Positions 24,109 to 61,581 of a stretch of DNA of 64,000 nt are shown here, piece by piece; positions within the stretch are counted from its first letter, which is position 1, and every line of letters starts with the position of its first letter. Position numbers and translations under genes: made by a program. The notes under the pieces were generated by a model, which searched no databases, was not told where the DNA came from, and was given only the letters and a program-made list of their open reading frames with translations. Source of the stretch: Bacilli bacterium (GTDB lineage Bacteria; Bacillota_I; Bacilli_A; RF39; UBA660); the NCBI GenBank assembly GCA_017484065.1, contig JAFUTX010000031.1, positions 34,581 through 98,580 on the forward strand, read 5' to 3'.

Positions 24109-25707
24109 ATGACAAATAAAAAGAAGATAATATCTTTAATACTTGTGTTGTGCTTATTAGTAGCACTAGGAGTAAGTTATGCTTTATGGACGACTAGTGA
24201 TAGCCAAAGTGATAATAATGAGTTAACTACAGATGATTGTATAGATATAGTATTTGAAGATAAAAGTAGTAATATAACATTAACAGATACAGTACCAGTA
24301 TTAGATAAGTTTGGTATGCAAAAGGCTGGTTATAGTTTTAAGATAACTAATAATTGTACTAAAAATGTCTCATATGATGTTAATTTAGAAAGTTTATCAA
24401 ATGTAGCAGAAGAAAATAGAACTAATTTAAATTATGTAAAGGTAGCATTAATAGAAAAGAGTAGTAATGAAACATATGCTTTTAATACATTAAATAATTT
24501 TGATACAACTAATAGTGTATTAGCTAGCGGTACTGCTTATGATACAAGAGTAATACTAAGAGATGTATTAAGGCCAAATAAATCAGTAGAATATACATTA
24601 AAGATGTGGATGGATGAGTCAACTCCTAATAGTGAACAAAATAAGACATATAATAGTCAAATTACTATATATGGAACACTAACTAATTCATATAATGCAG
24701 TAGAATATTTAACTGAATTAGCTAAGACTAATACAAATGAAATGTATTATGATGGAGCAAGTTATACTGATCCAGATACTAATGAATTAGTAGTAGATAA
24801 TAACCTAAGATATATGGGAGCTAATCCTAATAATTATGTCTGGTTTAATAATGAACCATGGCGAATAATAGGAGTGATGAACAATGTTAAAGGTTCATCT
24901 ACAGATGATGGTAGTGGTGAAACAAGAATTAAGTTGATTAGAGCAGAAAGTTTGGGAGAGTTTCCATACATTGATAGTTGTGCAGATGAATATTGGACAG
25001 ATAATGGTGATGGAACTTATACTTGTTCTTCTAAAAGATATAATAATAACTGGCCAAATAGTACAATAAATAGTTTATTAAATGATTTGTACTGGAATAG
25101 AAAAAATCATGAATCATATCATGGATGGGTTTTTAAAAATGGAACATGGCAAGATTATTTAACAGAAAAAATTGAATTTAAAAAGGATGGTTTAAGAACC
25201 AGTGATAAATCATTAATCGGAAATGCTGTATATTATTTGGGTGGCTACACAAAACAAAGCGAAAATAATTATTATGACTTAAATATGAATACTTCAAAAT
25301 GGTATGAAGCAGAACGAATAAATCAGGGAAATAATAACGAACTAACGTGGATAGGTAATTTGGGTTTAATGTATCCAAGTGATTATAGTTATGCTTCAAA
25401 ATATATATTATCTGATGATTGTAAAAATATCTCATTGTATTCTTGGGCTGAAAGTTTTAATAATAAATGTAAAAATAATGATTGGTTATATAATAGTGTG
25501 TTTTGGGAATGGACAATAACTCCGCGTGCTGATTCAAATGTAAGTTATGCTCATCAAAGCGGTGGCTACATCCGTAATAGTGATTATGGAACAATAGCCA
25601 GTTTTAGTATTCATCCTGTTTTATACCTAAAGAAAAATGTAGAAATGGCTAGTGGAGATGGGTCAAGAACAAATCCATATAGATTAACTATAGAGGAGGG
25701 AGTATAA
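24109..25707 (+). CDS. N-terminally anchored extracellular protein of unknown family (paralog 1, 532 aa)
   Basis: N-terminal TM/signal anchor; shared blocks DGASYTDPDT, NNYVWFNNE-WRIIGVMN, SSKRYNNNWPNST, NELTW-GNLGLMYPSDY, C-terminal NPYRL. Confidence 0.7.
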   Translation: MTNKKKIISLILVLCLLVALGVSYALWTTSDSQSDNNELTTDDCIDIVFEDKSSNITLTDTVPVLDKFGMQKAGYSFKITNNCTKNVSYDVNLESLSNVAEENRTNLNYVKVALIEKSSNETYAFNTLNNFDTTNSVLASGTAYDTRVILRDVLRPNKSVEYTLKMWMDESTPNSEQNKTYNSQITIYGTLTNSYNAVEYLTELAKTNTNEMYYDGASYTDPDTNELVVDNNLRYMGANPNNYVWFNNEPWRIIGVMNNVKGSSTDDGSGETRIKLIRAESLGEFPYIDSCADEYWTDNGDGTYTCSSKRYNNNWPNSTINSLLNDLYWNRKNHESYHGWVFKNGTWQDYLTEKIEFKKDGLRTSDKSLIGNAVYYLGGYTKQSENNYYDLNMNTSKWYEAERINQGNNNELTWIGNLGLMYPSDYSYASKYILSDDCKNISLYSWAESFNNKCKNNDWLYNSVFWEWTITPRADSNVSYAHQSGGYIRNSDYGTIASFSIHPVLYLKKNVEMASGDGSRTNPYRLTIEEGV

Positions 25708-27323
25708 TGAAAAATAAGAAAGTATTAGTAATAGTTATAGTTCTTCTTCTAGTAGTAGTTATTCTAGGTGCTTCATATGCTTTATGGACAACTACAGCAC
25801 ATCAAGATGGTAATAATAGTGCAGCGTTATCTTGTTTAGATATAACTTATGAAAGTATTAGTGAAAATAATATAGAATTAAATGAAGTTTTACCTATAAC
25901 AGATGAAGCAGGTTTAGCTTTAGAAGGATACACTTTTAAAATAACAAATAATTGTAATAGTATAGTAAGATATCAAGTTAATTTAGAAACATTAAATATA
26001 AGTAATGATACTAAGTATTTAAATATAGATTATTTAGATGCTACTATAGATAATGAGTTTATTGAAACATTAGGTAATTATGAAAGTACAACTACACTAC
26101 TAAGTGATAATGAAGCTAGAGATGCTAGAATAATAAAAGAAGGATTATTAGATAAAAGTAGTAATACATCTACTAATAGTGTAATTCATACTTTAAGAGT
26201 ATGGTTAGATAAAGATACTCCTACTAGTGAGAAGTATGCACAATGGAGAGGTAAGATAACTATAAATGCTACAACTCCAACAGAAGATATAATCTATGAT
26301 ACAGCAGCTAACTATTTAACAAATGTAGTAAAACCTACAACAGATGAACTTGTATATGATGGAGCAAGTTATACTGATCCAGATACAGGAGTAGAAATAG
26401 TAGATAATAACTTAAGATATGTTGGAGCCAATCCAGATAACTATGTTTGGTTTAATAATGAGTTATGGAGAATTATTGGTGTAATGAACCATGTAAAAGG
26501 TGGAGAGAATGCACCTAGTGAAGGAGAGACAAGACTTAAGTTAATAAGAGATGAAAGTTTGGGAAATTTTCCGTATTATGAAGATTGTTTAGAAGAAAAT
26601 ATGAATTATGACGCTCAAACTGATAAATGGACATGTTCAAGTAAAAGATACAATAATAATTGGCCAAATAGTACGGCTAATGAAATACTAAATGATTTGT
26701 ATTGGAATCGAAGGCCTCATGCTCCATATAATGGTTACATGTATTTAAAAACCGGCAATCAAACATCTTTTACATGGCAAGATTATAAAACTGAAGCTGT
26801 CGATTTTAGGAATAGTGGACTTAAGAAAGTTTATCAAAATATGATGGAAACTGCTACATATTATTTAGGCGGATATACTTGGGATAATGGTGGTACTTAT
26901 GATGGAGTAACAATGAATACTAAACAGTATTATACAGCTGAAAGAACAAATCAAGGAATTAATAACGAGTTAACGTGGGCAGGAAATTTAGGCTTAATGT
27001 ATCCAAGTGATTATGGCTATGCAAGCAGTGGTTCTGTATCAGGTAGTAGCTGTAGAAATATAGTCCTTAGTACATGGAGTCAGGCAGCAAATGCAAATTG
27101 CAGAAATAACAACTGGTTATTTAGCAGTGCATTCTGGCAATGGACAATGACTCTGCGTGTTGATTATACAATCAATGTGGCAGATGTGAGCATTAGTGGC
27201 AATGTTTCCCACGATAACACGCATATCGGTTTTGGCTTGCGCCCTGTAGCATACCTAAAATCACAAGTCAAAATAATTGGTGGTATAGGTTCTTCAGATA
27301 ACCCATATCGCTTAAGCTTATAA
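25707..27323 (+). CDS. N-terminally anchored extracellular protein of unknown family (paralog 2, 538 aa)
   Basis: same conserved blocks as paralog 1; start overlaps the stop of paralog 1. Confidence 0.7.
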   Translation: MKNKKVLVIVIVLLLVVVILGASYALWTTTAHQDGNNSAALSCLDITYESISENNIELNEVLPITDEAGLALEGYTFKITNNCNSIVRYQVNLETLNISNDTKYLNIDYLDATIDNEFIETLGNYESTTTLLSDNEARDARIIKEGLLDKSSNTSTNSVIHTLRVWLDKDTPTSEKYAQWRGKITINATTPTEDIIYDTAANYLTNVVKPTTDELVYDGASYTDPDTGVEIVDNNLRYVGANPDNYVWFNNELWRIIGVMNHVKGGENAPSEGETRLKLIRDESLGNFPYYEDCLEENMNYDAQTDKWTCSSKRYNNNWPNSTANEILNDLYWNRRPHAPYNGYMYLKTGNQTSFTWQDYKTEAVDFRNSGLKKVYQNMMETATYYLGGYTWDNGGTYDGVTMNTKQYYTAERTNQGINNELTWAGNLGLMYPSDYGYASSGSVSGSSCRNIVLSTWSQAANANCRNNNWLFSSAFWQWTMTLRVDYTINVADVSISGNVSHDNTHIGFGLRPVAYLKSQVKIIGGIGSSDNPYRLSL

Positions 27324-45309: not shown

Positions 45310-45352
45310 TGAAAACTACTTTTTTCTATGAAAAAAGTACCTTACGGTACTT
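45305..45352. terminator. two adjacent hairpins between convergent rmuC and the glucosaminidase gene
   Basis: AGTAGT-gaaa-ACTACT plus T6, and AAGTACC-ttac-GGTACTT. Confidence 0.55.
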
Positions 45353-45977
45353 AAGCATTTTTAATTCTTTCGATATAATTATTAACTTTTCTAGCCCATT
45401 CAGTGCTTTCAGCATATTTATGATTCATTTTTTCTGGAGTGTCTAAACCATAAGCATAGTAATTTCTAGCTAAGTTAGATATAAATCTATCTATACCTTC
45501 TTCCATAGTAGAAAAACTTGCAAATGATCCACCATTACATCCAGGAGCACCTTTCATACCACCAACATTGTGGCAGTACTTAGTTAAGGAGCTACATGAA
45601 CCATTACCACAACCACTTTCAAGTAAAGTAATAGATACTGCTACATATGGATCAACTCCATATTCTAATGATTTACTTGCATATGTATAACCATAGTTAG
45701 TTAAATCACTTTTTAAAACTCTATTTAATTTATTGGTTAATTCTACTATAGTCATTCCATCATAAACTATCTTATTAGCTTCTAAATCTTCAATTATATT
45801 AGCATCATTCATTTTATAGGAAAATGATGTGTTACTTAATTTAGTATTATTTACAATTTTTTGATTTATTAATAAGCTCGAACTAGAATCAACTGTTAAA
45901 AATACTGTTAAAAGAATTAAAATCATTCCAAGATGTATAAAGTATTTAGGAATACTAATTATCTTCTTGTTTTTCAT
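45351..45977 (-). CDS. membrane-anchored glucosaminidase-domain (endo-beta-N-acetylglucosaminidase) peptidoglycan hydrolase
   Basis: YVAVSITLLESGCG glucosaminidase motif. Confidence 0.7.
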   Translation of the reverse strand: MKNKKIISIPKYFIHLGMILILLTVFLTVDSSSSLLINQKIVNNTKLSNTSFSYKMNDANIIEDLEANKIVYDGMTIVELTNKLNRVLKSDLTNYGYTYASKSLEYGVDPYVAVSITLLESGCGNGSCSSLTKYCHNVGGMKGAPGCNGGSFASFSTMEEGIDRFISNLARNYYAYGLDTPEKMNHKYAESTEWARKVNNYIERIKNA

Positions 45978-47214
45978 CTTCTATCACCTTATTAAACTCT
46001 TTTGCTAATGTTCCATTTTTATATAAAGACATATAAGCTTTATGATTAATAATTAAATCATATTCACCTATGAATTCATATAATTTAGGATTAAATCCAA
46101 TTTTAAATTGGTTTAAACCATGATATGGACTTTCTTTACTGAAATCCCCTGTAATTCCATTTAAATCAGCAAAAGCAAATTTATCTTTATAATATTCTAA
46201 TATTTTATAATATAAGAAATGATTTGGATTAAATGAACCATAGTTTTTATCAAAACCACTAATTACTATATTAATGCGATTATGATGTTTCATAACTAAT
46301 GCTCCAGCTATATAGGTTTTAGCAAATTGGTTCATTCCTTTAGTAGCTAATGTTATATCATTTTTGTATGCTGCTAAAGCTTTATCTGAATTCATTTTCT
46401 TATTTACTAAATGAGGATTGTTACTACGAGATAACATAATGTTTAGATTATTATTTTTTTCTTCTTCAATAGAGTACGCTTCTCTTGAATTTAACATAAA
46501 ATCATTATAGTCTAAATTAACTAAGAATAAATCTATATTATCAAATTTATTAAATATATTATAATAATCTTTATAGTATATTACATCTTTATTCTTTTTA
46601 TCCTTAATAAACTCATATAGGATATCGATACCACGACGATCACTTATTTCAAAGTGTAATCCTTTTCTAGTAGCTTTTTTTACTTTATTTCTTGTATTTT
46701 TACTAATACTATTAATATTAAATTCTTTTAATGGAATAATAGCATTAAATCTAGGAAATAAAGATTCAAAATATAAGTTATCTTTTAATTTTAAGTAATC
46801 CATTTGTAATAAATAATCTTTAATTCTAATGTTAGAATTATAAGATATTTCATGAGTTTTAGGATTTATTTCTCCAATTGCTATTTCTGGATTTATTTTA
46901 ATAAAAGCAAAATTTTTATGCTTGTAGTATTCTTTTAAATCATTGGTGAAGTTTCTTAATAAATTTAAGTCATAGTAATCTATTAAAAAACCTTTAGGAG
47001 CATAACCATATTTTGAAAACATGGATATTTTTTTATAAAGAATAAGAGTAGCTGCTTTAATATTATTGTTATCATCTAGATAACCAATTAAGTCATATTC
47101 AAACCCGTTTTCAGCCATTAATAGGGCATAGTTTGAACTTTGATAATAATTCCCTAGTGGATGATTAATAGCATAGTTATCAAATTGGGGAATTGTTAAT
47201 TCTACTATTCTCAA
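45955..47214 (-). CDS. FemAB-family peptidoglycan cross-bridge aminoacyl/peptidyl transferase
   Basis: 419-aa FemABX-like N-terminus MRIVELTIPQFDNYAINHPLGNYYQSSNYALL; overlaps the downstream glucosaminidase gene by 23 nt. Confidence 0.8.
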   Translation of the reverse strand: MRIVELTIPQFDNYAINHPLGNYYQSSNYALLMAENGFEYDLIGYLDDNNNIKAATLILYKKISMFSKYGYAPKGFLIDYYDLNLLRNFTNDLKEYYKHKNFAFIKINPEIAIGEINPKTHEISYNSNIRIKDYLLQMDYLKLKDNLYFESLFPRFNAIIPLKEFNINSISKNTRNKVKKATRKGLHFEISDRRGIDILYEFIKDKKNKDVIYYKDYYNIFNKFDNIDLFLVNLDYNDFMLNSREAYSIEEEKNNNLNIMLSRSNNPHLVNKKMNSDKALAAYKNDITLATKGMNQFAKTYIAGALVMKHHNRINIVISGFDKNYGSFNPNHFLYYKILEYYKDKFAFADLNGITGDFSKESPYHGLNQFKIGFNPKLYEFIGEYDLIINHKAYMSLYKNGTLAKEFNKVIEDEKQEDN

Positions 47215-47293
47215 AACATTTTCCTCCTCATTAGTACATAATTATACCATAAAATAGGATAAATTTCAAATCGAGGGCACTTGTATACGTATT

Positions 47294-48856
47294 TTAACTA
47301 TTTTTTAATACCGCATGAACTACTAATCTAGTGTTATTATAACTACATGTCGATAGGGTAAGTATCTTATCATCATTACCAACTTGGGCATCAAATTTAG
47401 CTATACTTCTATCTCTAAGCATTTTAATAAAACTTTGCCATTCTGTATTATTATCAAATTTTATTTGTAAATAATCACTAGTTTTAGGAATCTTATATGT
47501 ACTAAATATTTCAAATTCATAAGTATCATATAAAGTACTTAATGTAATAATCAAATTATCTTTATTAGTATACCATTTCTTTTCTTGCATTTTATATAAA
47601 GTACCAAACATAATACCACTATAATATCTATTATGACCATAAAGAATAGTGTTTTTATCTAAATCAATAGTATTATTACGGTAATCCATGAATATCCAAC
47701 CATTTTGATCTTCTTCATCATTAAAATTATGTTTAAGATAGTAATCATTATCTACTGTTTGTAGTACTGAATAGTCAATGTTAGTATTTTTTACATTCAC
47801 CCATGCTACAGTATTAGGATTAATACTTAATAATGATGCTATATATGGATTAGTAATTACTTTATCATTATTATTACTTGGTTCAGTAGGAATTACATTA
47901 TTCTTTTCATCTTCTTTTATTTTTTTGCTAATATTCTCTTGTATTTTAGTTACTTCCTTCATAGAAGTATAATTAGTAATAAGTATATAACCAGATACAA
48001 AGACAATTAAAGAGAATATAATAAAACCACATATTTTTAAAATATTTACAAGCAATTGATTAAATACATTATTTTTTAAATATTCATTAGAGTATTTTAA
48101 ACCAAAAGATATTCTATATCTTCTTTTATATTTACGGTTTATTTTCTTTAAATATTCGACAGTTTTTTCGTTAGTAATATTACTATGTATTACTATTTTT
48201 ATGTTACTAACTTTATTACTTTTTAATATATTTACTATATAATCAATATCATCTTTATCAGCTTTGTTTATGTGAATAGTTTGTAAATATCTATTAATTT
48301 TAAAGAATGTATTAATATCTTCTTTTTCATCTTTATTAAGAGGAAATCTTATTCTTATAGATAATTTATAATAGATTGTACTAAATTCATTTAAGTTATT
48401 TCCTTGCATGAAATCACTAGTAAAGAATAGTTCTATTCTTGATTTAACAATAATTCCATTTTTATCTAATAAATCAATCATAAAAGTAGGTACGTTATAA
48501 CAATTTAAATATTTTATAAATTTGTTTTTAACAATTTTTTCACATATTTCATATGGTAATGATACATCTTCAAGTAAACATAAATGTTCAATCAATGGGT
48601 TATTTTTTATAACACTTAAAACAAGTAAAGCTAAGTCATTAACTTCAACATTTACTTTAGTTATATTTTTTTCTTTACATAACTCTTTTATGAATAAACT
48701 AACTATTTTAGTATTATTAACTATATATTCATCTGTAAATAACAATTTGTTATTATTTATTACATTAGTATTGAGCATTTTAGTTTCATCGGTCTTAACA
48801 TTATTATAAGAAAATATAAGAGTATTATTGTTAATAGTAATTAAAACTTTTTTCAT
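47294..48856 (-). CDS. class B sortase catalytic domain fused to a novel ~265-aa N-terminal cytoplasmic domain, single TM between them
   Basis: C-terminal half resembles the SrtB catalytic domain (NPY..SLL...NIDY..L...YYL..NF, NTILYGHN, TLSTC, R in TRLVVHA); the N-terminal 265 aa matches no family I recognise. Confidence 0.8.
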   Translation of the reverse strand: MKKVLITINNNTLIFSYNNVKTDETKMLNTNVINNNKLLFTDEYIVNNTKIVSLFIKELCKEKNITKVNVEVNDLALLVLSVIKNNPLIEHLCLLEDVSLPYEICEKIVKNKFIKYLNCYNVPTFMIDLLDKNGIIVKSRIELFFTSDFMQGNNLNEFSTIYYKLSIRIRFPLNKDEKEDINTFFKINRYLQTIHINKADKDDIDYIVNILKSNKVSNIKIVIHSNITNEKTVEYLKKINRKYKRRYRISFGLKYSNEYLKNNVFNQLLVNILKICGFIIFSLIVFVSGYILITNYTSMKEVTKIQENISKKIKEDEKNNVIPTEPSNNNDKVITNPYIASLLSINPNTVAWVNVKNTNIDYSVLQTVDNDYYLKHNFNDEEDQNGWIFMDYRNNTIDLDKNTILYGHNRYYSGIMFGTLYKMQEKKWYTNKDNLIITLSTLYDTYEFEIFSTYKIPKTSDYLQIKFDNNTEWQSFIKMLRDRSIAKFDAQVGNDDKILTLSTCSYNNTRLVVHAVLKNS

Positions 48857-48954
48857 ATAATCTCGACCTCACTATTTATTCTATATAGATTTTAACATAT
48901 TTTACATAGTTTTGGGAAAAAAATATATAAAAATACAAATCTTTTTATCTAATC

Positions 48955-48983
48955 TTGAAATTAATACAACCCTTTGTTATAAT
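48955..48983 (+). promoter_or_regulatory. sigma-A promoter TTGAAA-17-TATAAT for essC-esaB
   Basis: in the divergent intergenic region. Confidence 0.5.
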
Positions 48984-49013
48984 TATAGATAGTAGAATAT
49001 TGGGGTGAATCAT

Positions 49014-52000
49014 ATGAAGGTATTAATTATTAAAAATAATCAAATCATTAATTATGATTTGCCTTCTAAAATCTTTGGTAATTATTGGATTAAAGATACT
49101 GATTTAAATGGTAATGAAAGAAATCTAATAAATGTTGAAGAATATAATGGAAAATGGAAGATAAAAAGCAATAATGATTGTAAAATTATTTATAATAATA
49201 CTTATCAAGAAGCGGTTTATTTAGCTGAATATAGTTATTGTGAATTAGAAGTAAAAGGGGAAGTAGAACACTTTATACTTTATTGTTGTCCAGTTTATGA
49301 AAAATCTTATAATATTTATGCTATTAAAGGAACTAGAGTACTACTAGTAGGTAATGATTCATCTAACCATATTATTTATAAAAGTAATGATATAGCACGC
49401 CAACAAATAAAGTTAACAAGCAATAATGTTTTTTGGAACTTGCAAAATATTCAAGAGAATAGGAAAGTGTATGTTAATAACTTAGCAGTTACTAACAAAA
49501 ATCTAGTATATGGCGATATTATATTCTTAATGGGATTAAAAATAATTGTTTTAAACAATTATATATTAATAAATAATCCTAATAATTTAGTAGAGGTTAA
49601 TACTCAGAATCTTGAATTAATTAATTTAACAGAAGTTGAAGATAATCCTGAAGAAGATGATGATACATTAGAAGTTTATTCTAAAAATGATTATTATTAT
49701 CGTTCTCCTAGATTTAAAAGTAATATAGCTAAAGAAGATTTAACAATTGATCCTCCTCCTGGAGCTCAAAATAACAATCAACTACCTTTTTGGCTAGCTA
49801 TGGGTTCAATGATGGTTATGGGCATGCGTTCTGTATTTGGTTTGATGGATGTTATTAATAGTGTTAGTACTGGAAAAACTACTTGGGGCGACGCAATGCC
49901 TAGCTTACTTACTAATGGTTCAATGATTTTTGGGTCATTAATGATTCCAGTAATGACAAGAATGTATCAAAAAAAAGCAGCTAAAAAATACGAAAGAAAA
50001 AGACAAAAAAAATATAGTGATTATTTGGCAATGCAACGTAATGTTATTAGTAATATTATGAAAAAGCAAAAAGATATTTTACTTAATAATTATCCGTCAG
50101 TAGAAGAGTGCTATAACATAATAGTTAATCGTAAAAGAAATCTTTGGGAAAGAAAAATTGATAATGAAGACTTCTTAACATTGCGGGTAGGTTTAGGCAA
50201 TACTAAAGTAGAATTAGATTTAAAGTATCAAGAAAAGCATTTTTCGATGGATGAAGATAATTTACTTAATGATATGTATCGAATGACTGATGAATTACAA
50301 GAATTAAAAGATGTGCCAGTTACTATTTCTTTAACTGAAAAATTTGTATCAGCTATTCTTGGTAATAGCAACGTTATATCAAATTATTTAGAAACATTAA
50401 TTATTCAAATGATTACATATCATAGCTATGAAGATTTAAAAATAGTAGTTCTTACTGATGAAAAGAATGCTTATAAATATGAATACTTAAAAGTATTACC
50501 TCATTGTTGGAGTAATGATAAAAGCATTAGATTCTTTGGTACTAATAATGATGATATAAATAAAATATCAATGTATTTAATGAATGAATTTAAAGAACGT
50601 AAGTATCAAGATGAAGAAGAACAAAACTCTTCTAAAGAAGATGATTATAAGAGTTATTCACCGTACTACATGATTATTACAGATAATTTTGCTAATGCCA
50701 GAAAAGTAGAGATAATTAGAAATACTTTAGAACAAACAATTAATTATGGGTTTAGTTTGCTTATACTTGCTAATAGATTAAATGAGTTACCTAATGAATG
50801 TACGTCTTTCTTAAATATCGATACTAACATATCAGGTATGATTGAAAATGATTTATCATTAGAAAGTCAAAAGCCGTTTAAAGCTGATTTTAATAGTAAG
50901 GTAAATATTTATGAATGTGCTACTAGACTTGCTAATATACCAATAGAATTATCTAATGGTAGCTATGATTTACCTAATATGATTAGTTTTTTAGAAATGT
51001 ATAATGTTGGTAATGTTGATCAATTAAACTCTATGGAACGTTGGAAAAACAATAATCCTGTTGCATCTCTTCAAGTTCCAGTTGGAGTTAACGAAAGTGG
51101 CGATTTATTCAAACTAGATTTACATGAAAAAGCTCATGGCCCTCATGGTTTAATTGCAGGTACTACAGGTAGTGGTAAATCAGAATTTATTATTACTTAT
51201 ATTTTAAGCCTTGCTGTTAATTATCATCCTTATGAAGTTAGTTTTGTTTTAATTGACTACAAAGGTGGAGGATTAGCTGGGGCTTTTGAAAATAAAGATA
51301 CTGGTGTAAAATTACCACACTTAGCAGGTACAATTACTAACTTGGATATCACTGAGATTAATCGTTCGCTAGCTAGTATAGAAAGTGAACTTAAAAGACG
51401 TCAAAGAATATTTAATGAAGCTCGTGATAAACTAGAAGAAAGTACAATAGATATTTATAAATATCAAAGATATTATCGTGAAGGTTTAGTTACAGAACCA
51501 GTAAGTCATTTGTTTATTATAAGTGATGAGTTTGCTGAATTAAAAGCACAACAACCTGAGTTTATGGCACAACTTATACAAACAGCTCGTATTGGTCGTA
51601 GTTTAGGAGTACACTTAATTTTAGCAACACAAAAACCAAGTGGGGTTGTAGATGATCAAATATGGTCTAACTCTAAATTTAGAGTATGTTTAAAAGTTCA
51701 AGATAAATCAGATAGTAATGACATGATTAAATGCCCAGACGCAGCAAAACTATCAAATCCTGGTAGATTCTATTTACAAGTAGGATATAATGAGTTGTTT
51801 GCTTTAGGACAATCAGCATGGTGTGGAGCACCTTATTATGCAACTGATATGCGTAAAAAGACTATTGATGCTAATCTTAATTTCTTAGATACAGTTGGAG
51901 AAGTAGTAAAAAGTGTTGATCGTCAAAAAGGTGTAAACGCTGTAAAAGCAGATGGAGAAGAATTACCTCATATTGTCAAATATTTGACAAAGATAGCTAA

Positions 52001-53642
52001 GGCAGAAAATATTAATATTAGACCTTTATGGATTGATAGAATACCTGATGTAATCTTTATTGATCAGTTAAAAGAAAAATACAATTATAAACCTGAGAGA
52101 TTAAAACTTAATCCTATAATTGGTGAATATGATGATCCACATAATCAAAGACAAGATATTCTTACATTACCAATAGAAGGTAATAGTGTTATTTATGGTA
52201 TTACTGGTAGTGGTAAAGATTTACTTATTAATTCAATTATATATTCTTGTGTAACTAATCATTCAGTAGATGAAATTAATTTCTACTTACTAGATTTTGG
52301 CTCTGAAACACTTAGAATGTTTAAAAATATTCCACATGTTGGAGATGTATTATTCTCAAATGATGCTGATAAAATAGACAATCTATTTAAAATGTTAAAA
52401 GAAGAATGTGAAATAAGAAAGAATCTATTTGCTGATTATAATGGTAGTTATGAATATTATTGTAATAATAGTGGTAATGTGATTCCAAAAATTGTTGTAA
52501 TCTTCAATGCCTTTGAAGCATTTACAGAATTATTCCCAGATTATAATGATATCTTAGTTACATTAACTAGAGAAGCTACTAGATATGGAATATATTTCAT
52601 AATAAGTACAAGTGGTACTAATTCAATTCGTTATAAATTAGCTGCCAACTTCACACAAAGTATTGCTTTACAATTAAATGATAAGAGTGATTATACATCA
52701 GTTCTAGGAAATACTGGCGGAGTTCTTCCAAGTAAAATATATGGTCGTGGAGTAATTAATCTAAATGGTGGTTACTATGAGTTCCAAACTGCATACATGT
52801 ATGAAAGAGATAAAACTTTAGAATTTGTTAATGCTTTATCTAAAAAACTTAACGAAGTTTATAAACATCGTGCTAAAAAGATCCCAGTATTACCTGAGGT
52901 AGTAACTATTGAAGAAATAGAAAGTGAAATAAATACACTAGATAATGTACCAATTGGTATACGTAAAGATGACTTAGTAATAGAAACATTTGACTTTGAT
53001 AGTAAATTTGTTACTAATATTGCAAGTCAAGATATTGAAGCTTTTACACCATTTGTACCATCATTAATTAATTTATTATGTACTAAATATAAGAATAAAA
53101 TATCTATATTAGATGCTGCTGGTATATTTAAGAAGAATAAATTCACTTGTGATTATGTATCAAGTGGCTTTAATAAATACTTTGATAGTTTAGAAGCTAC
53201 TATAAATGAGTTAGACAAAGAGGCTAGTAGCAAAGGATATAGTGATGATTATTTAAATACATTTGAAAAAAGATTTATCATAATTACGGGAATTCAAGAT
53301 TGGTCAGTTAATATGGGTGGTACTGAATTTGGTAAACGTTATGAAGAATTCTTAAATAAATGTAATAAATTAAAAGTAGTTAAAATTATTTATGTAGATA
53401 TGATTGATAAATTAAAGAAACTAGATTTTGAATCATGGTATAAAAACTTTAATGAAGCTAATCGTGCTATTTGGGTTGGTAGTGGACTAGGTGGACAATT
53501 TACTATTAAGTTAAATAAAAATCCAAGATATTTAAATGATCAAATTGATAATAATTATGGTTATACTATTAACAATGGTAATGTATCTACATTAGTTAAA
53601 TTACTTGATGACCAGCCTAAAAGTGGTATGGACACATTATAG
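49014..53642 (+). CDS. essC: type VII secretion system FtsK/SpoIIIE-family ATPase EssC
   Basis: N-terminal FHA-like region, two TM helices, three FtsK-like ATPase domains (D1 Walker A GTTGSGKSEF); ATG at 49014 with GGGGTGA RBS. Confidence 0.9.
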   Translation: MKVLIIKNNQIINYDLPSKIFGNYWIKDTDLNGNERNLINVEEYNGKWKIKSNNDCKIIYNNTYQEAVYLAEYSYCELEVKGEVEHFILYCCPVYEKSYNIYAIKGTRVLLVGNDSSNHIIYKSNDIARQQIKLTSNNVFWNLQNIQENRKVYVNNLAVTNKNLVYGDIIFLMGLKIIVLNNYILINNPNNLVEVNTQNLELINLTEVEDNPEEDDDTLEVYSKNDYYYRSPRFKSNIAKEDLTIDPPPGAQNNNQLPFWLAMGSMMVMGMRSVFGLMDVINSVSTGKTTWGDAMPSLLTNGSMIFGSLMIPVMTRMYQKKAAKKYERKRQKKYSDYLAMQRNVISNIMKKQKDILLNNYPSVEECYNIIVNRKRNLWERKIDNEDFLTLRVGLGNTKVELDLKYQEKHFSMDEDNLLNDMYRMTDELQELKDVPVTISLTEKFVSAILGNSNVISNYLETLIIQMITYHSYEDLKIVVLTDEKNAYKYEYLKVLPHCWSNDKSIRFFGTNNDDINKISMYLMNEFKERKYQDEEEQNSSKEDDYKSYSPYYMIITDNFANARKVEIIRNTLEQTINYGFSLLILANRLNELPNECTSFLNIDTNISGMIENDLSLESQKPFKADFNSKVNIYECATRLANIPIELSNGSYDLPNMISFLEMYNVGNVDQLNSMERWKNNNPVASLQVPVGVNESGDLFKLDLHEKAHGPHGLIAGTTGSGKSEFIITYILSLAVNYHPYEVSFVLIDYKGGGLAGAFENKDTGVKLPHLAGTITNLDITEINRSLASIESELKRRQRIFNEARDKLEESTIDIYKYQRYYREGLVTEPVSHLFIISDEFAELKAQQPEFMAQLIQTARIGRSLGVHLILATQKPSGVVDDQIWSNSKFRVCLKVQDKSDSNDMIKCPDAAKLSNPGRFYLQVGYNELFALGQSAWCGAPYYATDMRKKTIDANLNFLDTVGEVVKSVDRQKGVNAVKADGEELPHIVKYLTKIAKAENINIRPLWIDRIPDVIFIDQLKEKYNYKPERLKLNPIIGEYDDPHNQRQDILTLPIEGNSVIYGITGSGKDLLINSIIYSCVTNHSVDEINFYLLDFGSETLRMFKNIPHVGDVLFSNDADKIDNLFKMLKEECEIRKNLFADYNGSYEYYCNNSGNVIPKIVVIFNAFEAFTELFPDYNDILVTLTREATRYGIYFIISTSGTNSIRYKLAANFTQSIALQLNDKSDYTSVLGNTGGVLPSKIYGRGVINLNGGYYEFQTAYMYERDKTLEFVNALSKKLNEVYKHRAKKIPVLPEVVTIEEIESEINTLDNVPIGIRKDDLVIETFDFDSKFVTNIASQDIEAFTPFVPSLINLLCTKYKNKISILDAAGIFKKNKFTCDYVSSGFNKYFDSLEATINELDKEASSKGYSDDYLNTFEKRFIIITGIQDWSVNMGGTEFGKRYEEFLNKCNKLKVVKIIYVDMIDKLKKLDFESWYKNFNEANRAIWVGSGLGGQFTIKLNKNPRYLNDQIDNNYGYTINNGNVSTLVKLLDDQPKSGMDTL

Positions 53643-53656
53643 TTAGTGAGGCGTTT

Positions 53657-53908
53657 ATGAATAAAGTACTAGTAGAATTATATGTTCCTAAAATAGAAAA
53701 AAAATATGAAATATTCTTACCAGTTTCTAAACAAGTAAGAACCGTAATTAGATTATTAGTTAAGTCTATAAACGAACTTACTAATCAAGAATTTCCTTTA
53801 GATTATAAAGCAATTCTATGTGATAAATTTACTGGAAATATATTTGATTTAAATAAAACTATTAAAGAATTAGGAATAATGAATGGAGCTAAATTAATAT
53901 TAATTTAG
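53657..53908 (+). CDS. esaB: EsaB/YukD ubiquitin-like T7SS protein
   Basis: 83 aa, YukD-like pattern ending GAKLILI, immediately downstream of essC. Confidence 0.75.
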   Translation: MNKVLVELYVPKIEKKYEIFLPVSKQVRTVIRLLVKSINELTNQEFPLDYKAILCDKFTGNIFDLNKTIKELGIMNGAKLILI

Positions 53909-53967
53909 TTCTTTTTTTATTGTTTTTGTAAGTTTTAAAGTTATAATTTGTACTGTTAGTTAAAAAA

Positions 53968-53996
53968 TTGACAAAATATAAATATTATGATAATAT
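53968..53996 (+). promoter_or_regulatory. TTGACA-17-TAATAT promoter for the candidate antisense RNA, copy 1
   Basis: identical element at 54362-54390 in copy 2. Confidence 0.4.
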
Positions 53997-54002
53997 GTAT
54001 TT

Positions 54003-54101
54003 ATCAAAGAAATTTGAATAAAATAAAAAGAGGAACATTCAATTTCGTACGTTGAATGTCTACCTCAATATATTGAGTTAGACATTTCAGTTCATATTTT
54101 T
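54003..54101 (+). ncRNA. candidate cis-antisense antitoxin sRNA, copy 1, convergent with the toxin gene
   Basis: hairpins ACATTCAA..TTGAATGT and AATGTCTA-cCTCAATATATTGAGt-TAGACATT followed by a T-run; co-varying stems in copy 2. Confidence 0.3.
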
Positions 54102-54118
54102 AAATATGTTCTGAAGTG

Positions 54119-54232
54119 TCATTTTTTTATACTAATAATTATTAGTAATATTACAAAACCTAAGAAGGCTAAATGTAACACAAGGACAGAAAACTTAGAG
54201 ATAAGCTTTAAAATGAAAGATTTTGTTTTCAT
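54119..54232 (-). CDS. 37-aa hydrophobic type I toxin-like peptide (MKTKSFILKLISKFSVLVLHLAFLGFVILLIIISIKK)
   Basis: hand-translated from the minus strand; SD GGAAGGA lies inside hairpin ATCCTT-aatgg-AAGGAT; single TM then a KK tail; paralog in copy 2. Confidence 0.55.
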   Translation of the reverse strand: MKTKSFILKLISKFSVLVLHLAFLGFVILLIIISIKK

Positions 54233-54296
54233 TCAATAAACATCCTTCCATTAAGGATAAGAGGTAGACACCAACAACTGAATGATCCATATTGAC

Positions 54297-54325
54297 ATTA
54301 TATCAACTTCTATGATATTTATCAA
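54297..54325 (-). promoter_or_regulatory. minus-strand TTGATA-17-TATAAT promoter for the toxin mRNA, copy 1
   Basis: reverse complement of 54297-54325; conserved as 54679-54707 in copy 2. Confidence 0.45.
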
Positions 54326-54361
54326 TAACAAATATTACAAAATGTAATACTTGTTGGAAAA

Positions 54362-54390
54362 TTGACAAAATATAAATATTATGATAATAT
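54362..54390 (+). promoter_or_regulatory. TTGACA-17-TAATAT promoter for the candidate antisense RNA, copy 2
   Basis: identical to the copy 1 element. Confidence 0.4.
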
Positions 54391-54503
54391 GTATTTATCA
54401 AAGAAATTTGAATAAAATTAAAAAAGGAAGTATTCAGTATTCGTGTGCTGAATGCCTACCCTAATTAATGGTGCGACATTTAAGTCAAATACTTAAGTGC
54501 CTT

Positions 54504-54611
54504 TTATTTTGCTAAAAATATTAGCAGTATTACTAAGCCTAATAAGGCTAAATGTAATATTAGAGAGGAAACTAGCGAAATAAGTTTTAAAATAAAATTT
54601 GTTAGTTTCAT
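54504..54611 (-). CDS. 35-aa hydrophobic type I toxin-like peptide (MKLTNFILKLISLVSSLILHLALLGLVILLIFLAK)
   Basis: hand-translated; SD GAAAGGAAGGG lies inside perfect hairpin CCTTTCAT-tctag-ATGAAAGG; conservative substitutions relative to copy 1. Confidence 0.55.
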   Translation of the reverse strand: MKLTNFILKLISLVSSLILHLALLGLVILLIFLAK

Positions 54612-54678
54612 CTTAAACCCTTCCTTTCATCTAGAATGAAAGGGTAGACACTCAGCTACTAAATAATTCCATGTTGAC

Positions 54679-54707
54679 ATTATATCAATTTTTATGATGT
54701 TTATCAA
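54679..54707 (-). promoter_or_regulatory. minus-strand TTGATA-17-TATAAT promoter for the toxin mRNA, copy 2
   Basis: reverse complement gives TTGATA aacatcataaaaattga TATAAT. Confidence 0.45.
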
Positions 54708-54799
54708 CAGTAAATGTTGCAAAATGTAATACTTTTTAACCTTTACTTTTAGTATTTTAAGTGATAAAATACACTTAATTGATGAAGAAATTATCTAAG

Positions 54800-55010
54800 T
54801 AGTTATATTAAAAACTTAAAAGAGAATAGTAATCATGGCTGGAAGTTACTAAAGTAAATTTAATATAATGAATTTCAATAATGGAGTCAAATCGTTATAG
54901 AGCGTTAATCTAATAGAGTGCTAATTAATTTTAGAACAAAGGTGGTACCGCGGATTTAACAGTAATTCGTCCTTTATAAGGATAATTACTGTTTTTATAT
55001 TGGAAAGGAT
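54800..55010 (+). ncRNA. T-box riboswitch leader of pheS-pheT
   Basis: AGAGA stem I start, T-box sequence AAAGGTGGTACCGCGG at 54938-54953, terminator AACAGTAATT..AATTACTGTT plus TTTTAT at 54959-55000. Confidence 0.8.
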
Positions 55011-58666: not shown

Positions 58667-59710
58667 ATGGATTTATCTAATCCTGATTTCAAAGAAGTAT
58701 GTAAAGAAGTTATAGCTGAATTATCAAACAGTTATGGTTTTGTACCATTAGCTGATTTTGAACATGAAATAGGTAAAATATTAACCGAAGGATATCAGTA
58801 TAATCGATTATTATTACATGTATTAAAAAATAATATTAAAGTTATTAAAAACATTCAACATAATAACGATGAATTATCTAAGCAACAAAGAGAATACTCT
58901 AAATTGGTAGTAGAACCAACTATAGAGTTAGAAACATTTGAAAAAGATATTAAATCTTCAAAACTAAATAAAACAAATAATAGTATAGTTGATAAAATAG
59001 TTAGCTTTAGAAATAGTGACGATTTAGGAGAGTATCTTGAAGAAAATAATAGTCTAATTGATGAAAAAACTTTAAAACTAGCTATATTAAAGCTAAAAAT
59101 AGAAATTAATGAATATTACAAATTAAAAAAAGAAGTAACAACAGAAGAGGATTTAGATATTATTAATCTAGATATAGATGAATTAAAAGATAAGATTGAA
59201 GTATTACATTATTTTATTGATATTATAAATGGTAAAACAGATATTAGTGAATCTGATAAACCAATTAATGATATTTTCTTTTTTGAAAGTAGTGCTTTAA
59301 ATCCATTAATATTAAATGATTTAAAAGATATGGATCGTAATTATTTAAAACGTGTTAAAGGCTTAATTGATTCATTAATATATGATAAACCAAAATGTAT
59401 AAAGAAATTTGTTCATAATTCTAATATTAGTAATATTTATGAAGTGCGCGATATTAGTGGTAAAGTTCGTGTAACATTTGTTTATATAACACCAAATAAA
59501 CTCATGCTATTATCAGCATTTAAGAAAAAGAATAATGGAGTAGTAGGTTATGAAATGGCTAATTTATCCGAAATTAATAAAAAGTATTTAGCTAATTTAA
59601 GTACTATTAAAGAAGATATTAATAATGAATCATCTGATTATTATATTCGTAATCAAAAAAACTTATTAGAATTAAATAATATATTAGACGTAGGTAAAAA
59701 GAGGGGTTAA
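58667..59710 (+). CDS. hypothetical protein (347 aa, no signal peptide)
   Basis: long ORF with RBS AAAGGGGGA; no family recognised. Confidence 0.5.
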   Translation: MDLSNPDFKEVCKEVIAELSNSYGFVPLADFEHEIGKILTEGYQYNRLLLHVLKNNIKVIKNIQHNNDELSKQQREYSKLVVEPTIELETFEKDIKSSKLNKTNNSIVDKIVSFRNSDDLGEYLEENNSLIDEKTLKLAILKLKIEINEYYKLKKEVTTEEDLDIINLDIDELKDKIEVLHYFIDIINGKTDISESDKPINDIFFFESSALNPLILNDLKDMDRNYLKRVKGLIDSLIYDKPKCIKKFVHNSNISNIYEVRDISGKVRVTFVYITPNKLMLLSAFKKKNNGVVGYEMANLSEINKKYLANLSTIKEDINNESSDYYIRNQKNLLELNNILDVGKKRG

Positions 59711-59712
59711 TA

Positions 59713-61581
59713 ATGGAAAAAATATTAAAACAATTAAAAGAGTTAGTGAATAAAGTAGCAATGGAATCATTGTCAAAAGAATATACTGAATCATATGAAG
59801 AAAAATTATTAGCAAAAATAAATCATATACGTACTTATGAAGACTTAGCCAATAATGAATTAATAGACCTTTTTAATTTATTTAAGTATTTAGAAGATGA
59901 TGAAACAAATGAAAATGATAATTCAAATGATTATAATATCTTAATTAATCTTTTAGAGAAGATGAACTTTAAAAATGTATATGAGTTTGCTTATTTTTAT
60001 ACATATTTATATAGTTTAAGATTTACATTTCCTACTGTTTATGATTATATTAATAATCCTGATGAACAAGCTCTATTAGATGATGAAGAATATTTACATT
60101 ATCTTATGTACCAAAAATATTCACAAGATTTTTTTAGTGAGAATAAAAGTGTTAAAGAAAAGACTTATAATGCACTAGTAGAAGCCTTAAAGTCACGATA
60201 TTCTGTAACATTTCTACATTTATATTGTTTAATACGTGAACAAAGAGCAAGCGAATTAGATATTAAACTAAATCGCCGTTATCGAAATATGATATTTGAA
60301 GCAAAAGTTGTTAATACAGGTGTTTTCCAACTTATTAAAAATGCTAAAAAGAAATATGTGGAAGATAAAGATAATTTTAATAAAAAAATGATTAAAATAA
60401 CCAGATCCTTAAAAGATTTTTACGTATACTTAAATAGTATTAAAGAAAATGAAATAATTGATATATCTAAATTAGATACTGAATTATTAAGTCTTAAAGA
60501 TGCTCAATATATAATTGAATATGTTATAAAGTATAATGAACAGATTTTTGATAAAGAAATACAAAGTTATACAAACTATATAAATGATAAATATACGGTA
60601 TTTAAAAATATTTTTAAAAAATATAATTTTGATTTTACTAAATATACATATGATCAACAAGAGTATTTAATGAATACTCTAGAAATGAATGATTTATTTG
60701 AATTATTAGAAATAATAAATGAATTATTTCATAAAAATACTATACCAATGGATATGTTATTTTATATATTAAAGGAATCAGATATAAAAGATTTACAATC
60801 GATAGCTACTATGCATATTAATCCAGAATTTTTACTTAACAATTATACTATTTTTAATAAAGGTATATTAAATAATGTTCATAATAATGTTCAATTATTT
60901 AAAGAAAAAGAAATTAAATGGCGTAGAGAAGAGAATAAAAATAATCCTGTTATATTAGTTGATAACTCATTCTTAAGTTATAATATTAAACTATTAGAGT
61001 TATATCGTAAAAATATGAAAGATAAAGAATTAACTAATTTTGATTATTTAAAAAATGAAGATTATATTATTAATATTGAAAGATTAATTGAACTAGGTAT
61101 AGAACAAAAAGAAATAAATAAAATAATTAATAATCCTGCTATTTCTGTAAAACATTTAACTTTATTAGTAAAAAGATTGTTAATTGAAAAAGAGTTAGGA
61201 AGTAATAATATTACAGAAGATTATTGGTTAGAGGATGAAGTTTTAGATGAATTTATTATCAATGACATTAATGATTATATAGATAATGATACTAATAATA
61301 TTATTAATAGTAGTTATCAAATTAATATAAGTGGTGATAATCCATATATTACTATTTTAGATAAAGAATATAAAATAGATAATTATAGGTATAATATTAA
61401 TGGTATAAATATTTCTAGAAATAAAGTAATTAGAAATATAAGTAAATTAAATAAAGAAGTATTATCAAATAATGAATTATTAACTATATTAATTCATAAT
61501 AGTATACTTAATACTTATGAAATAGAAATAGTAAAAGAAAGTATTACTAAGTTATTTAATACTAATATATTAAAAAGATAA
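59713..61581 (+). CDS. hypothetical protein (622 aa, no signal peptide)
   Basis: long ORF translationally coupled to the previous gene; no family recognised. Confidence 0.5.
   Translation: MEKILKQLKELVNKVAMESLSKEYTESYEEKLLAKINHIRTYEDLANNELIDLFNLFKYLEDDETNENDNSNDYNILINLLEKMNFKNVYEFAYFYTYLYSLRFTFPTVYDYINNPDEQALLDDEEYLHYLMYQKYSQDFFSENKSVKEKTYNALVEALKSRYSVTFLHLYCLIREQRASELDIKLNRRYRNMIFEAKVVNTGVFQLIKNAKKKYVEDKDNFNKKMIKITRSLKDFYVYLNSIKENEIIDISKLDTELLSLKDAQYIIEYVIKYNEQIFDKEIQSYTNYINDKYTVFKNIFKKYNFDFTKYTYDQQEYLMNTLEMNDLFELLEIINELFHKNTIPMDMLFYILKESDIKDLQSIATMHINPEFLLNNYTIFNKGILNNVHNNVQLFKEKEIKWRREENKNNPVILVDNSFLSYNIKLLELYRKNMKDKELTNFDYLKNEDYIINIERLIELGIEQKEINKIINNPAISVKHLTLLVKRLLIEKELGSNNITEDYWLEDEVLDEFIINDINDYIDNDTNNIINSSYQINISGDNPYITILDKEYKIDNYRYNINGINISRNKVIRNISKLNKEVLSNNELLTILIHNSILNTYEIEIVKESITKLFNTNILKR

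Follow-up and report, generated by a model that had tools for sequence, protein, structure and literature searches.

The locus comprises genes for an EssC-type membrane ATPase and a YukD/EsaB-type ubiquitin-like protein, facing divergently transcribed genes for a class B sortase, a FemAB-family transferase and a glucosaminidase, within the 64-kb stretch of DNA analyzed here (the window). All five genes of the preliminary description are present at the positions it assigned to them. The features of the locus are as follows:

45335-45352, bidirectional terminator-like hairpin after the glucosaminidase gene
45351..45977, minus strand, membrane-anchored GH73 N-acetylglucosaminidase, 208 aa (PF01832)
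45955..47214, minus strand, FemAB-family peptidoglycan cross-bridge aminoacyl transferase, 419 aa (PF02388)
47269-47241, minus strand, strong promoter-like site for femAB, TTGAAA-17-TGnTATAAT, in the 79-nt spacer between sortase and FemAB
47294..48856, minus strand, class B sortase, 520 aa (TIGR03064, residues 272-511)
48857-49013, divergent intergenic region of 157 nt between sortase and essC, with promoter-like sites on both strands
48955..48983, plus strand, promoter-like site for essC (TTGAAA, 17 nt, TG-extended TATAAT; a consensus match only)
49014..53642, plus strand, EssC-type T7SS membrane ATPase, 1542 aa (TIGR03928)
53657..53908, plus strand, YukD/EsaB-type ubiquitin-like protein, 83 aa, recognized by its fold and its position beside EssC

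EssC scores 1051 bits against TIGR03928 (cut-off 778) and contains an FtsK_SpoIIIE match in Pfam (E 2.3e-50). With the ATG at 49014 as start codon (ribosome-binding site GGGGTG), the product has 1542 aa, and an alternative GTG at 49005 would yield 1545 aa; the length of 1536 aa given previously is incorrect. The N-terminus consists of tandem FHA-like domains, for which the Pfam matches to FHA (E 0.007) and Yop-YscD_cpl are weak and homologues with precomputed FHA matches exist; the phosphothreonine-binding residues appear by eye to be missing from the Pfam-aligned stretch. Two moderately hydrophobic transmembrane segments lie at approximately residues 256-317, and the remainder holds three P-loop domains, D1-D3, with Walker A motifs in D1 and D2 (GTTGSGKS at residue 716 and GITGSGKD at 1062) and a degenerate D3. 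The closest relative of solved structure is B. subtilis YukB (9qks, E 4e-127). The layout of EssC is therefore that of a T7SSb ATPase, and the domain calls made earlier from the sequence stand.

The identity of the 83-aa protein rests on its fold and its place beside EssC, its Pfam YukD score being sub-threshold (18.8 bits vs 27). A PDB sequence search with the YukD profile returned ubiquitin-like matches only, all insignificant. An AlphaFold2 model, made with database homologues, reached a pLDDT of 94.6. In Foldseek it is closest to ubiquitin-like domains of EccD, a component of ESX systems (7np7 and 7npt, TM 0.82-0.83, and 4kv2), with ubiquitin and UBX folds next. The fold agrees with the earlier call of a YukD/EsaB-like ubiquitin fold directly after EssC. 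The C-terminus lacks Gly-Gly. Two type-I-toxin-like modules are found after YukD in the window; Pfam returned nothing for peptides of 35-37 aa.

The 520-aa protein scores 173.8 bits against TIGR03064 (cut-off 153.75) and carries an additional N-terminal region (residues 1-265). In finer detail, the protein has a cytoplasmic LRR-like N-domain (residues 1-255), a long transmembrane helix (approximately 257-318) and, outside the cell, a SrtB domain (337-517) with the catalytic triad His408, Cys504 and Arg510. A Pfam scan of the N-domain gave no match, and this domain is almost confined to the combination with SrtB; the sortase with an LRR-like cytoplasmic domain is a lineage-restricted architecture. 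At 7 of 8 related sortase-fusion loci, a divergent neighboring gene encodes the sortase's own putative substrate. These proteins of 179-198 aa are equipped with a signal peptide and a transmembrane segment, carry either N(P/A)(K/E)TG or QVNTG as their motif, and share the conserved tail K(M/L)Y(K/R)(I/M). With an N-terminal signal peptide, these substrates look Sec-dependent. Sorting signals were sought among the called ORFs and across a six-frame translation of the window; this gave antisense noise only, with no sortase substrate. The catalytic fold and the His-Cys-Arg triad are shared with the class B sortases of B. anthracis and Clostridium, whose SrtB enzymes act on NPKTG or (S/P)PXTG substrates, and the B. 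anthracis-type motif (NPKTG, NAKTG or NPETG) also occurs on the substrates encoded beside the related sortases (PMC11987632, PMC5118464). The window sortase differs from those enzymes in adding a cytoplasmic LRR-like domain of approximately 265 aa before the membrane anchor and in having no substrate gene in the window. The protein would be the class B sortase of its lineage, anchoring secreted proteins that carry an N(P/A)(K/E)TG sorting signal, and its cytoplasmic domain would be a family trait with no tie to T7SS. The pairing of LRR-like-domain sortases with substrates bearing a conserved cytoplasmic tail hints at substrate recognition from inside the cell.

The FemAB protein matches PF02388 over essentially its full length (171.7 bits, E 2.9e-50, residues 7-395) and scores 41.8 bits on the FemX equivalog model, short of the cut-off of 500. 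The glucosaminidase matches PF01832 (43.4 bits, cut-off 30.2), which identifies it as GH73, and has an N-terminal membrane anchor in the form of a transmembrane segment at residues 5-23. At loci L003 and L004, an orthologue with 45% identity is encoded 3 kb away from the sortase gene, without FemAB. Together with TIGR03064, these matches uphold the calls of a sortase B fusion, a FemAB transferase and a glucosaminidase, all three acting on the cell wall, and the latter two would be ordinary peptidoglycan genes. The further proposal that the three form an operon is not established: a candidate promoter lies in the 79-nt spacer, and FemAB and glucosaminidase, with a 23-nt overlap, are the sole overlapping pair. 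In DNA this rich in AT, such promoter-like sites show no enrichment: 84 were found, and shuffled sequence predicts 83.9. Divergent promoters 150 nt apart could nevertheless permit co-regulation in the source species.

The preliminary description took this arrangement to suggest an apparatus dedicated to envelope export or anchoring and comprising EssC-YukD and the divergent sortase, FemAB and glucosaminidase. In such an apparatus, EssC would export or energize proteins, the sortase would attach them to cross-bridges built by FemAB, and the glucosaminidase would open the wall first; a T7SS linked to sortase and cell-wall synthesis would, if true, amount to a novel type of envelope machine. The idea draws on the 157-nt spacing of the divergent genes with promoter-like sites on both strands, on the cell-wall activity of all three neighbors, and on the reproducibility of the arrangement. 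The same order of EssC, sortase, FemAB and glucosaminidase recurs in three Logan assemblies made independently for this species, two of which include YukD, so the arrangement is no assembly artefact and misassembly was rejected.

Comparison with relatives argues against any such apparatus. Across 91 loci of the clade that carry EssC-YukD, inspected with flanks of up to 10 kb each side (80 of them from a metagenome scan with alignment A2 that is biased towards the L009-type lineage), a homologue of the sortase fusion or the glucosaminidase occurs at none, and a FemAB homologue at one, approximately 10 kb off. Reciprocally, EssC is found at 0 of 8 related sortase-fusion loci, which represent 5 distinct neighborhoods at 46-69% identity. 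The nearest relative, GCA_947629125.1, carries EssC (81% identity) and YukD (93%) on contig 6, and its sortase (69% identity) on contig 64 with pheT, beside its own substrate gene. EssC-YukD occupies at least five different chromosomal contexts. In the sister species, contigs reaching upstream of EssC were sought and none was found. A mobile island was also considered; no integrase and no composition shift were detected. The Sec-dependent appearance of the relatives' sortase substrates, the lack of both sortase and T7SS substrates in the window, and the separate promoter-like site of FemAB likewise speak against a joint apparatus. Unlinked divergent genes in related genomes, which the preliminary description itself had named as evidence against its proposal, are what the neighborhood comparison revealed. 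The proximity of EssC-YukD to the sortase and cell-wall genes is peculiar to this species, a chance adjacency. Given an accidental gene order, a joint envelope apparatus is highly improbable and the idea should be dropped.

What does accompany EssC-YukD in related genomes is a small set of T7SS-like genes. YukD lies beside EssC in 88 of the 91 loci, and in 67-68 of them it is followed by two small genes, K4 (~68 aa) and K3 (~71 aa). Pfam gave no match for either product, and in hhalign both match the WXG100 profile with 92% probability; one of the two ~70-aa WXG100-like proteins ends in a conserved LE(A/V)LG(N/D)D tail. K3 and K4 are the only conserved neighbors with a T7SS signature across the 91 loci, the other recurrent neighbors resembling ordinary synteny. 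Other clade members carry WXG100, a LysM-WXG100_2 protein and DUF4176, a known chaperone of T7SSb toxins (PMC12478183), as well as proteins of 610-673 aa whose N-termini look LXG-like by eye, with no significant Pfam match. In the sister species, YukD is followed by unrelated paralogues, with no WXG-like genes there. The EssC relatives of Lachnospiraceae loci L014 and L017 (40-42% identity) share three further gene clusters, two of them a putative kinase and PP2C-type phosphatase judged by eye.

None of this cargo was detected in the window. Searches for WXG100, LXG and DUF4176 relatives, by tblastn with the relatives' cassette proteins and by our own HMMs, found none in the 64 kb; in the six-frame window neither tblastn nor the WXG100, K3 and K4 HMMs produced an E value better than 0.07, compared to 3.7e-38 for the YukD control, and no EsxA-type WXG100 protein is clustered with EssC in the 64-kb window. 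A Pfam scan of ORFs of at least 75 aa between 40.6 and 63 kb of the window uncovered no EssA, EssB or EsaA domains (pheS and pheT in this region were identified by similarity to L007, outside the Pfam scan). The preliminary observation that no EsaA, EssA, EssB or WXG100/LXG gene lies near EssC is thereby confirmed. YukC, EssA and EsaA domains are also lacking at the three Pfam-annotated loci L009-L011, no conserved membrane-protein cluster recurs across the 91 loci, and thus neither the window nor the related loci display a cluster with EssB/YukC, EsaA/YueB and EssA. We infer that EssA, EssB and EsaA are truly absent.

A canonical T7SSb split between loci, with EsxA, EsaA, EssA and EssB encoded at another locus and the window holding two of six core genes, would account for the missing parts as well. 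It accords with the match of EssC to the T7SSb equivalog TIGR03928, with YukB as its best solved relative and with FHA domains that, by eye, lack phosphothreonine-binding residues as in T7SSb; moreover, the core-gene searches in the source genome covered the window. We nonetheless consider a split system unlikely, since the 91 loci, inspected over as much as 10 kb in either direction, share no conserved neighbor with a T7SS signature apart from the two small WXG-like genes, and since L009-L011 are devoid of YukC, EssA and EsaA domains. Characterized T7SSb species, to our knowledge, keep the six core genes in one cluster, which also counts against it.

The missing substrates may alternatively mark an orphan remnant, in which EssC-YukD has outlived its substrate genes and is now either in decay or serving a purpose other than secretion. 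Such a history would fit 64 kb without a WXG-like gene, the unrelated paralogues that replace WXG-like genes after YukD in the sister species, and the toxin-like modules in the same position here. The genes themselves speak against decay: the 1542-codon EssC frame is intact with its Walker motifs kept, and the dN/dS values of EssC (0.154, against the L012 orthologue) and YukD (0.071) do not exceed that of PheT (0.19) between the same two species, all three values being approximate because dS is ~0.9, near saturation. EssC and YukD are under purifying selection, and a decaying or repurposed remnant is accordingly a distinctly poor prospect, less probable than the split system. As EssC and YukD are under selection despite the lack of a WXG-like gene in the window, their partners and substrates are probably encoded elsewhere in the genome, although the system of the source genome could also lack substrates. 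Of the two fall-back explanations in the preliminary description, a minimal EssC-YukD system and partners elsewhere, both are probably true in part.

We therefore regard it as likely that three unrelated transcription units have come to adjoin through lineage-specific rearrangement, and that essC-yukD is the core of a reduced T7SSb-like system. This pair would supply the membrane ATPase and a ubiquitin-like assembly factor to the reduced system, which occurs throughout a large clade of gut Bacilli that are uncultured and low in GC. If the pair works as YukB-YukD does in B. subtilis, YukD would bind EssC and stabilize the translocon, and EssC would spend ATP on the export of small helical WXG100-like proteins together with bound LXG-type toxins. 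This export mechanism is extrapolated from the YukB-YukC-YukD complex as resolved by cryo-EM (PMC12637312). The YukD of B. subtilis connects YukB with the pseudokinase YukC; near the clade members no YukC/EssB-like gene was seen, and the mechanism of assembly may therefore differ. More tentatively, and with the balance somewhat against it, the clade may represent an unclassified minimal T7SS subtype, widespread among uncultured gut and rumen Bacilli and made up solely of an EssC with FHA domains, a YukD-like protein and a pair of truncated ~70-aa WXG100-like proteins, with no need for EssA, EssB or EsaA. If this is true, the translocon would be built from a ubiquitin-like protein and an ATPase and nothing else. 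The gut Bacilli of this large uncultured clade appear to manage with a much smaller set of T7SS components than the B. subtilis/S. aureus model, which bears on the question of which parts are truly required to build a T7SSb channel. Because EssC-YukD is separable from its substrate cassettes, annotation pipelines based on gene clustering would miss such systems.

Compared with known systems, the architecture of EssC matches that of the T7SSb of B. subtilis and S. aureus (YukE/EsxA, YukD/EsaB, YukC/EssB, YukB/EssC, YueB/EsaA and EssA). The likeness extends to a separate ubiquitin-like YukD/EsaB directly beside EssC, to FHA domains that by eye lack phosphothreonine-binding residues, and to the WXG100, LXG-like and DUF4176 cargo genes in relatives of the window locus. 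In contrast to T7SSb, EssB/YukC, EsaA/YueB and EssA were seen neither in the window nor within 10 kb at the 91 related loci, EsxA is missing from the window, and most relatives have, as their conserved small partners, a pair of truncated ~70-aa WXG-like proteins. The T7SSc-T7SSj systems have a near-universal core of TsxA (WXG100), TsxB (ubiquitin-like) and TsxC (ATPase) with variable extras (Garrett, Higginson and Palmer 2024, PMC11217815), and the EssC-YukD clade follows the same core logic. None of those extras, whether Ser/Thr kinase, PPM phosphatase, DUF6382-FHA, vWA, DUF5050 propeller, Ig-repeat TsxI or AAA+ ATPase, was found in the window or at the loci of Bacilli MAGs. T7SSg is similarly simple and possesses a WXG protein pair, as do most relatives of the window locus, whereas its ATPase TsgC lacks the FHA domains that the window EssC has (PMC11217815).

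The five open reading frames of the preliminary description were all recovered within this very AT-rich window (G+C approximately 25%), and each domain assignment was supported by profile searches or, for the 83-aa protein, by its AlphaFold2 fold:

45351-45977 (-), glucosaminidase of family GH73 (PF01832, 43.4 bits in a profile search)
45955-47214 (-), FemAB transferase (PF02388, E 2.9e-50 in a profile search)
47294-48856 (-), 520-aa sortase fusion, with a class B sortase domain in its C-terminal half (TIGR03064, 173.8 bits against a cut-off of 153.75)
49014-53642 (+), EssC of the firmicute type (TIGR03928, 1051 bits against a cut-off of 778)
53657-53908 (+), YukD-like protein of 83 aa

The identity of EssC was upheld, whereas its described length was not: the most likely start is the ATG at 49014, giving a protein of 1542 aa, with which independent gene calls concur. 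Its nearest solved relative is Bacillus subtilis YukB. Walker A motifs are canonical in the P-loop domains D1 and D2, the D3 domain is degenerate, FHA matches are weak in profile searches, and the FHA phosphothreonine-binding residues are missing by inspection of the Pfam-aligned stretch only. The 83-aa protein scored only 18.8 bits on the Pfam YukD profile, and a search of PDB sequences with a YukD profile was uninformative. Its AlphaFold2 model is confident (pLDDT 94.6, 35 homologues in the alignment), and in the PDB the model best matches the EccD ubiquitin-like domains of ESX-5 and ESX-1 (TM 0.82-0.83), with ubiquitin and UBX folds next.

The preliminary description had proposed a dedicated envelope export or anchoring apparatus coupling EssC to the sortase and cell-wall enzymes, a proposal refuted by the separation of these genes in relatives, an outcome that the description itself had set against it. 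Five sortase-fusion homologues with 46-69% identity led to eight loci (L001-L008) in five distinct neighborhoods, none of which contains EssC or a FemAB gene adjoining the sortase. Conversely, we collected 91 EssC loci, 11 from protein look-ups and a genome scan and 80 from a YukD-profile metagenome scan, the latter biased to one lineage by search patterns drawn from the dominant YukD subfamily; 42 of the 91 are at least 12 kb long, and genes in the comparison loci are our own greedy ORF calls. Homologues of the sortase fusion or the glucosaminidase occur in none of these loci, while a FemAB homologue (approximately 10 kb away) and pheST are each found in one. In the nearest relative, the rabbit-gut MAG GCA_947629125.1, contig 6 carries EssC (81% identity) and YukD (93%) followed by eight paralogous secreted proteins, and contig 64 carries the sortase (69%), with pheT on one side and its own substrate gene on the other. 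The window gene order recurs in three independent assemblies of the window species and is therefore real yet species-specific. The linkage of EssC-YukD to the sortase genes is a local rearrangement that offers no evidence of shared function.

The sortase, FemAB and glucosaminidase genes had also been described as one operon. FemAB and glucosaminidase overlap by 23 nt, and ahead of them lies a strong promoter-like site, within the 79-nt spacer 3' of the sortase gene, so the trio forms a single unit in part at most. In this AT-rich DNA, promoter and terminator matches are to the consensus only and show no enrichment compared with shuffled sequence.

The sortase has over 100 full-length homologues and belongs to a conserved family. 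Its three-part model starts with a predicted N-terminal domain in which beta-alpha repeats alternate (residues 1-255), continues into a single long transmembrane helix and ends with the SrtB domain. The N-terminal domain is LRR-like, cytoplasmic and lineage-restricted, with 180 representative proteins among 1.84 billion. We know of no described sortase with a cytoplasmic LRR-like domain, and a literature search for this architecture turned up none. The divergent neighbor of the sortase in seven of eight related loci is a protein of 179-198 aa that combines a signal peptide with an N(P/A)(K/E)TG or QVNTG motif and a transmembrane segment; its cytoplasmic tail, K(M/L)Y(K/R)(I/M), is conserved over and above the usual positive charges. 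This neighbor is predicted to be a classic SrtB-type substrate, the motif of Bacillus anthracis SrtB being NPKTG (PMC11987632), and the LRR domain might recognize its tail from inside the cell. The signal peptide suggests that the substrate is exported via Sec, a further argument against involvement of EssC. The slot held by the substrate gene in relatives is taken by essC in the window, and no sorting signal was found anywhere in the 64 kb.

Across the clade, EssC adjoins YukD in 88 of the 91 loci, YukD lying almost always directly downstream. Two small genes, K4 and K3, follow YukD in 67-68 loci (e.g. L009 14881-15293, L084 10258-10476). K4 encodes approximately 68 aa, including an invariant W; its low-complexity tail is variable but closes with LE(A/V)LG(N/D)D. 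K3 encodes approximately 71 aa. Neither has a Pfam match; in profile-profile comparison both align to the WXG100 alignment (approximately 92% probability), K4 covering the W-containing turn and K3 the second helix. K4 and K3 resemble halves of WXG100, and EssC has a candidate export signal in the conserved end of K4. A richer cassette lies beside EssC-YukD in the closer relatives L010 and L011 (EssC identity 50-53%), with genuine WXG100 genes, a WXG100_2-LysM protein, proteins of 631-673 aa whose N-termini are LXG-like by eye without a significant Pfam match, and DUF4176, for which recent work has demonstrated a chaperone role towards T7SSb toxins (PMC12478183). EssB/YukC, EsaA/YueB and EssA were seen at none of the EssC-YukD loci. 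Small helical proteins are the only recurrent neighbors with any T7SS signature, and the other frequent neighbor clusters look like ordinary chromosomal synteny.

The window itself holds no WXG-like gene in its 64 kb: of 16 cassette proteins searched by tblastn, YukD alone matched, and HMMs of WXG100, K4 and K3 gave E >= 0.07 on all six-frame segments, against 3.7e-38 for a YukD control. Between the window species and its sister, dN/dS values, approximate at a dS of about 0.9, are 0.154 (EssC), 0.071 (YukD), 0.189 (PheT) and 0.217 (sortase), and EssC and YukD are under purifying selection. Since the pair is so maintained yet lacks any WXG-like gene nearby, we infer that the genes for its partners and substrates lie elsewhere in the genome.

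Other features of the window are as follows:

24109-25707 and 25707-27323 (+), two paralogous proteins of approximately 535 aa, N-terminus ..G(V/A)SYALWTT..
54119-54232 and 54504-54611 (-), paralogous hydrophobic ORFs of 35-37 aa, each with a near-consensus TG-extended promoter in front
54776-54977 (+), T-box leader upstream of pheS (67.8 bits against an Rfam gathering score of 93, E 2.7e-14)
58667-61581 (+), adjacent ORFs of 347 and 622 aa without clear family, flanked by a tRNA gene on one side and by yabP and yqfD, both sporulation genes, on the other

The T-box leader makes pheST a separate tRNA-regulated unit, without read-through from yukD. The hydrophobic ORFs lie in two tandem modules of approximately 390 nt (53941-54740, between yukD and the pheS leader), each also with a convergent promoter on the plus strand (TTGACA-17-TAATAT). 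In the first module, the RNA downstream (53997-54120) has an unusually stable fold (z = -6.1). Assemblies of the window species break at these modules, which have no Pfam or Rfam match and look like a duplicated type I toxin-antitoxin pair. The N-terminal 180-210 aa or so of the 535-aa pair share 35% identity with the eight-gene paralogue array directly 3' of EssC-YukD in the sister species (L012 3782-9621), where the counterpart of the ..G(V/A)SYALWTT.. stretch has a sub-threshold Camelysin (Peptidase_M73) Pfam match (E 7e-4). The 347-aa ORF has a weak Gp49/HigB-like stretch (E 2e-5), and neither a Pfam match nor a transmembrane segment was found in the 622-aa ORF.

The window pair is best interpreted as the core, ATPase plus ubiquitin-like protein, of a reduced system related to T7SSb. 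In B. subtilis, YukD binds YukB extensively and is needed for assembly and killing (PMC12637312), and the window pair would, by analogy, work as YukB-YukD does. It shares the EssC and YukD features of T7SSb but lacks EsxA, EssB, EsaA and EssA in cis, and the accessory signatures that mark T7SSc to T7SSj are all absent. PMC11217815 describes no T7SS subtype that combines FHA domains with a component set of A, B and C alone (WXG100, ubiquitin-like and ATPase). At clade level, the EssC-YukD system would therefore be a variant of type VII secretion, as judged from gene neighborhoods. Lachnospiraceae relatives of EssC with 40-42% identity (L014 6616-10257, L017 15575-19187) share three further gene clusters beside EssC-YukD, two of which look by eye, from N-terminal sequences, like a Ser/Thr kinase and a phosphatase of the PP2C type; WXG100 pairs occur in L014 only, not L017. 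If the kinase/phosphatase reading is right, these loci would resemble T7SSe and T7SSj (Garrett et al., PMC11217815), and the system of the Bacilli MAGs may have arisen by reduction from one like T7SSe/T7SSj.
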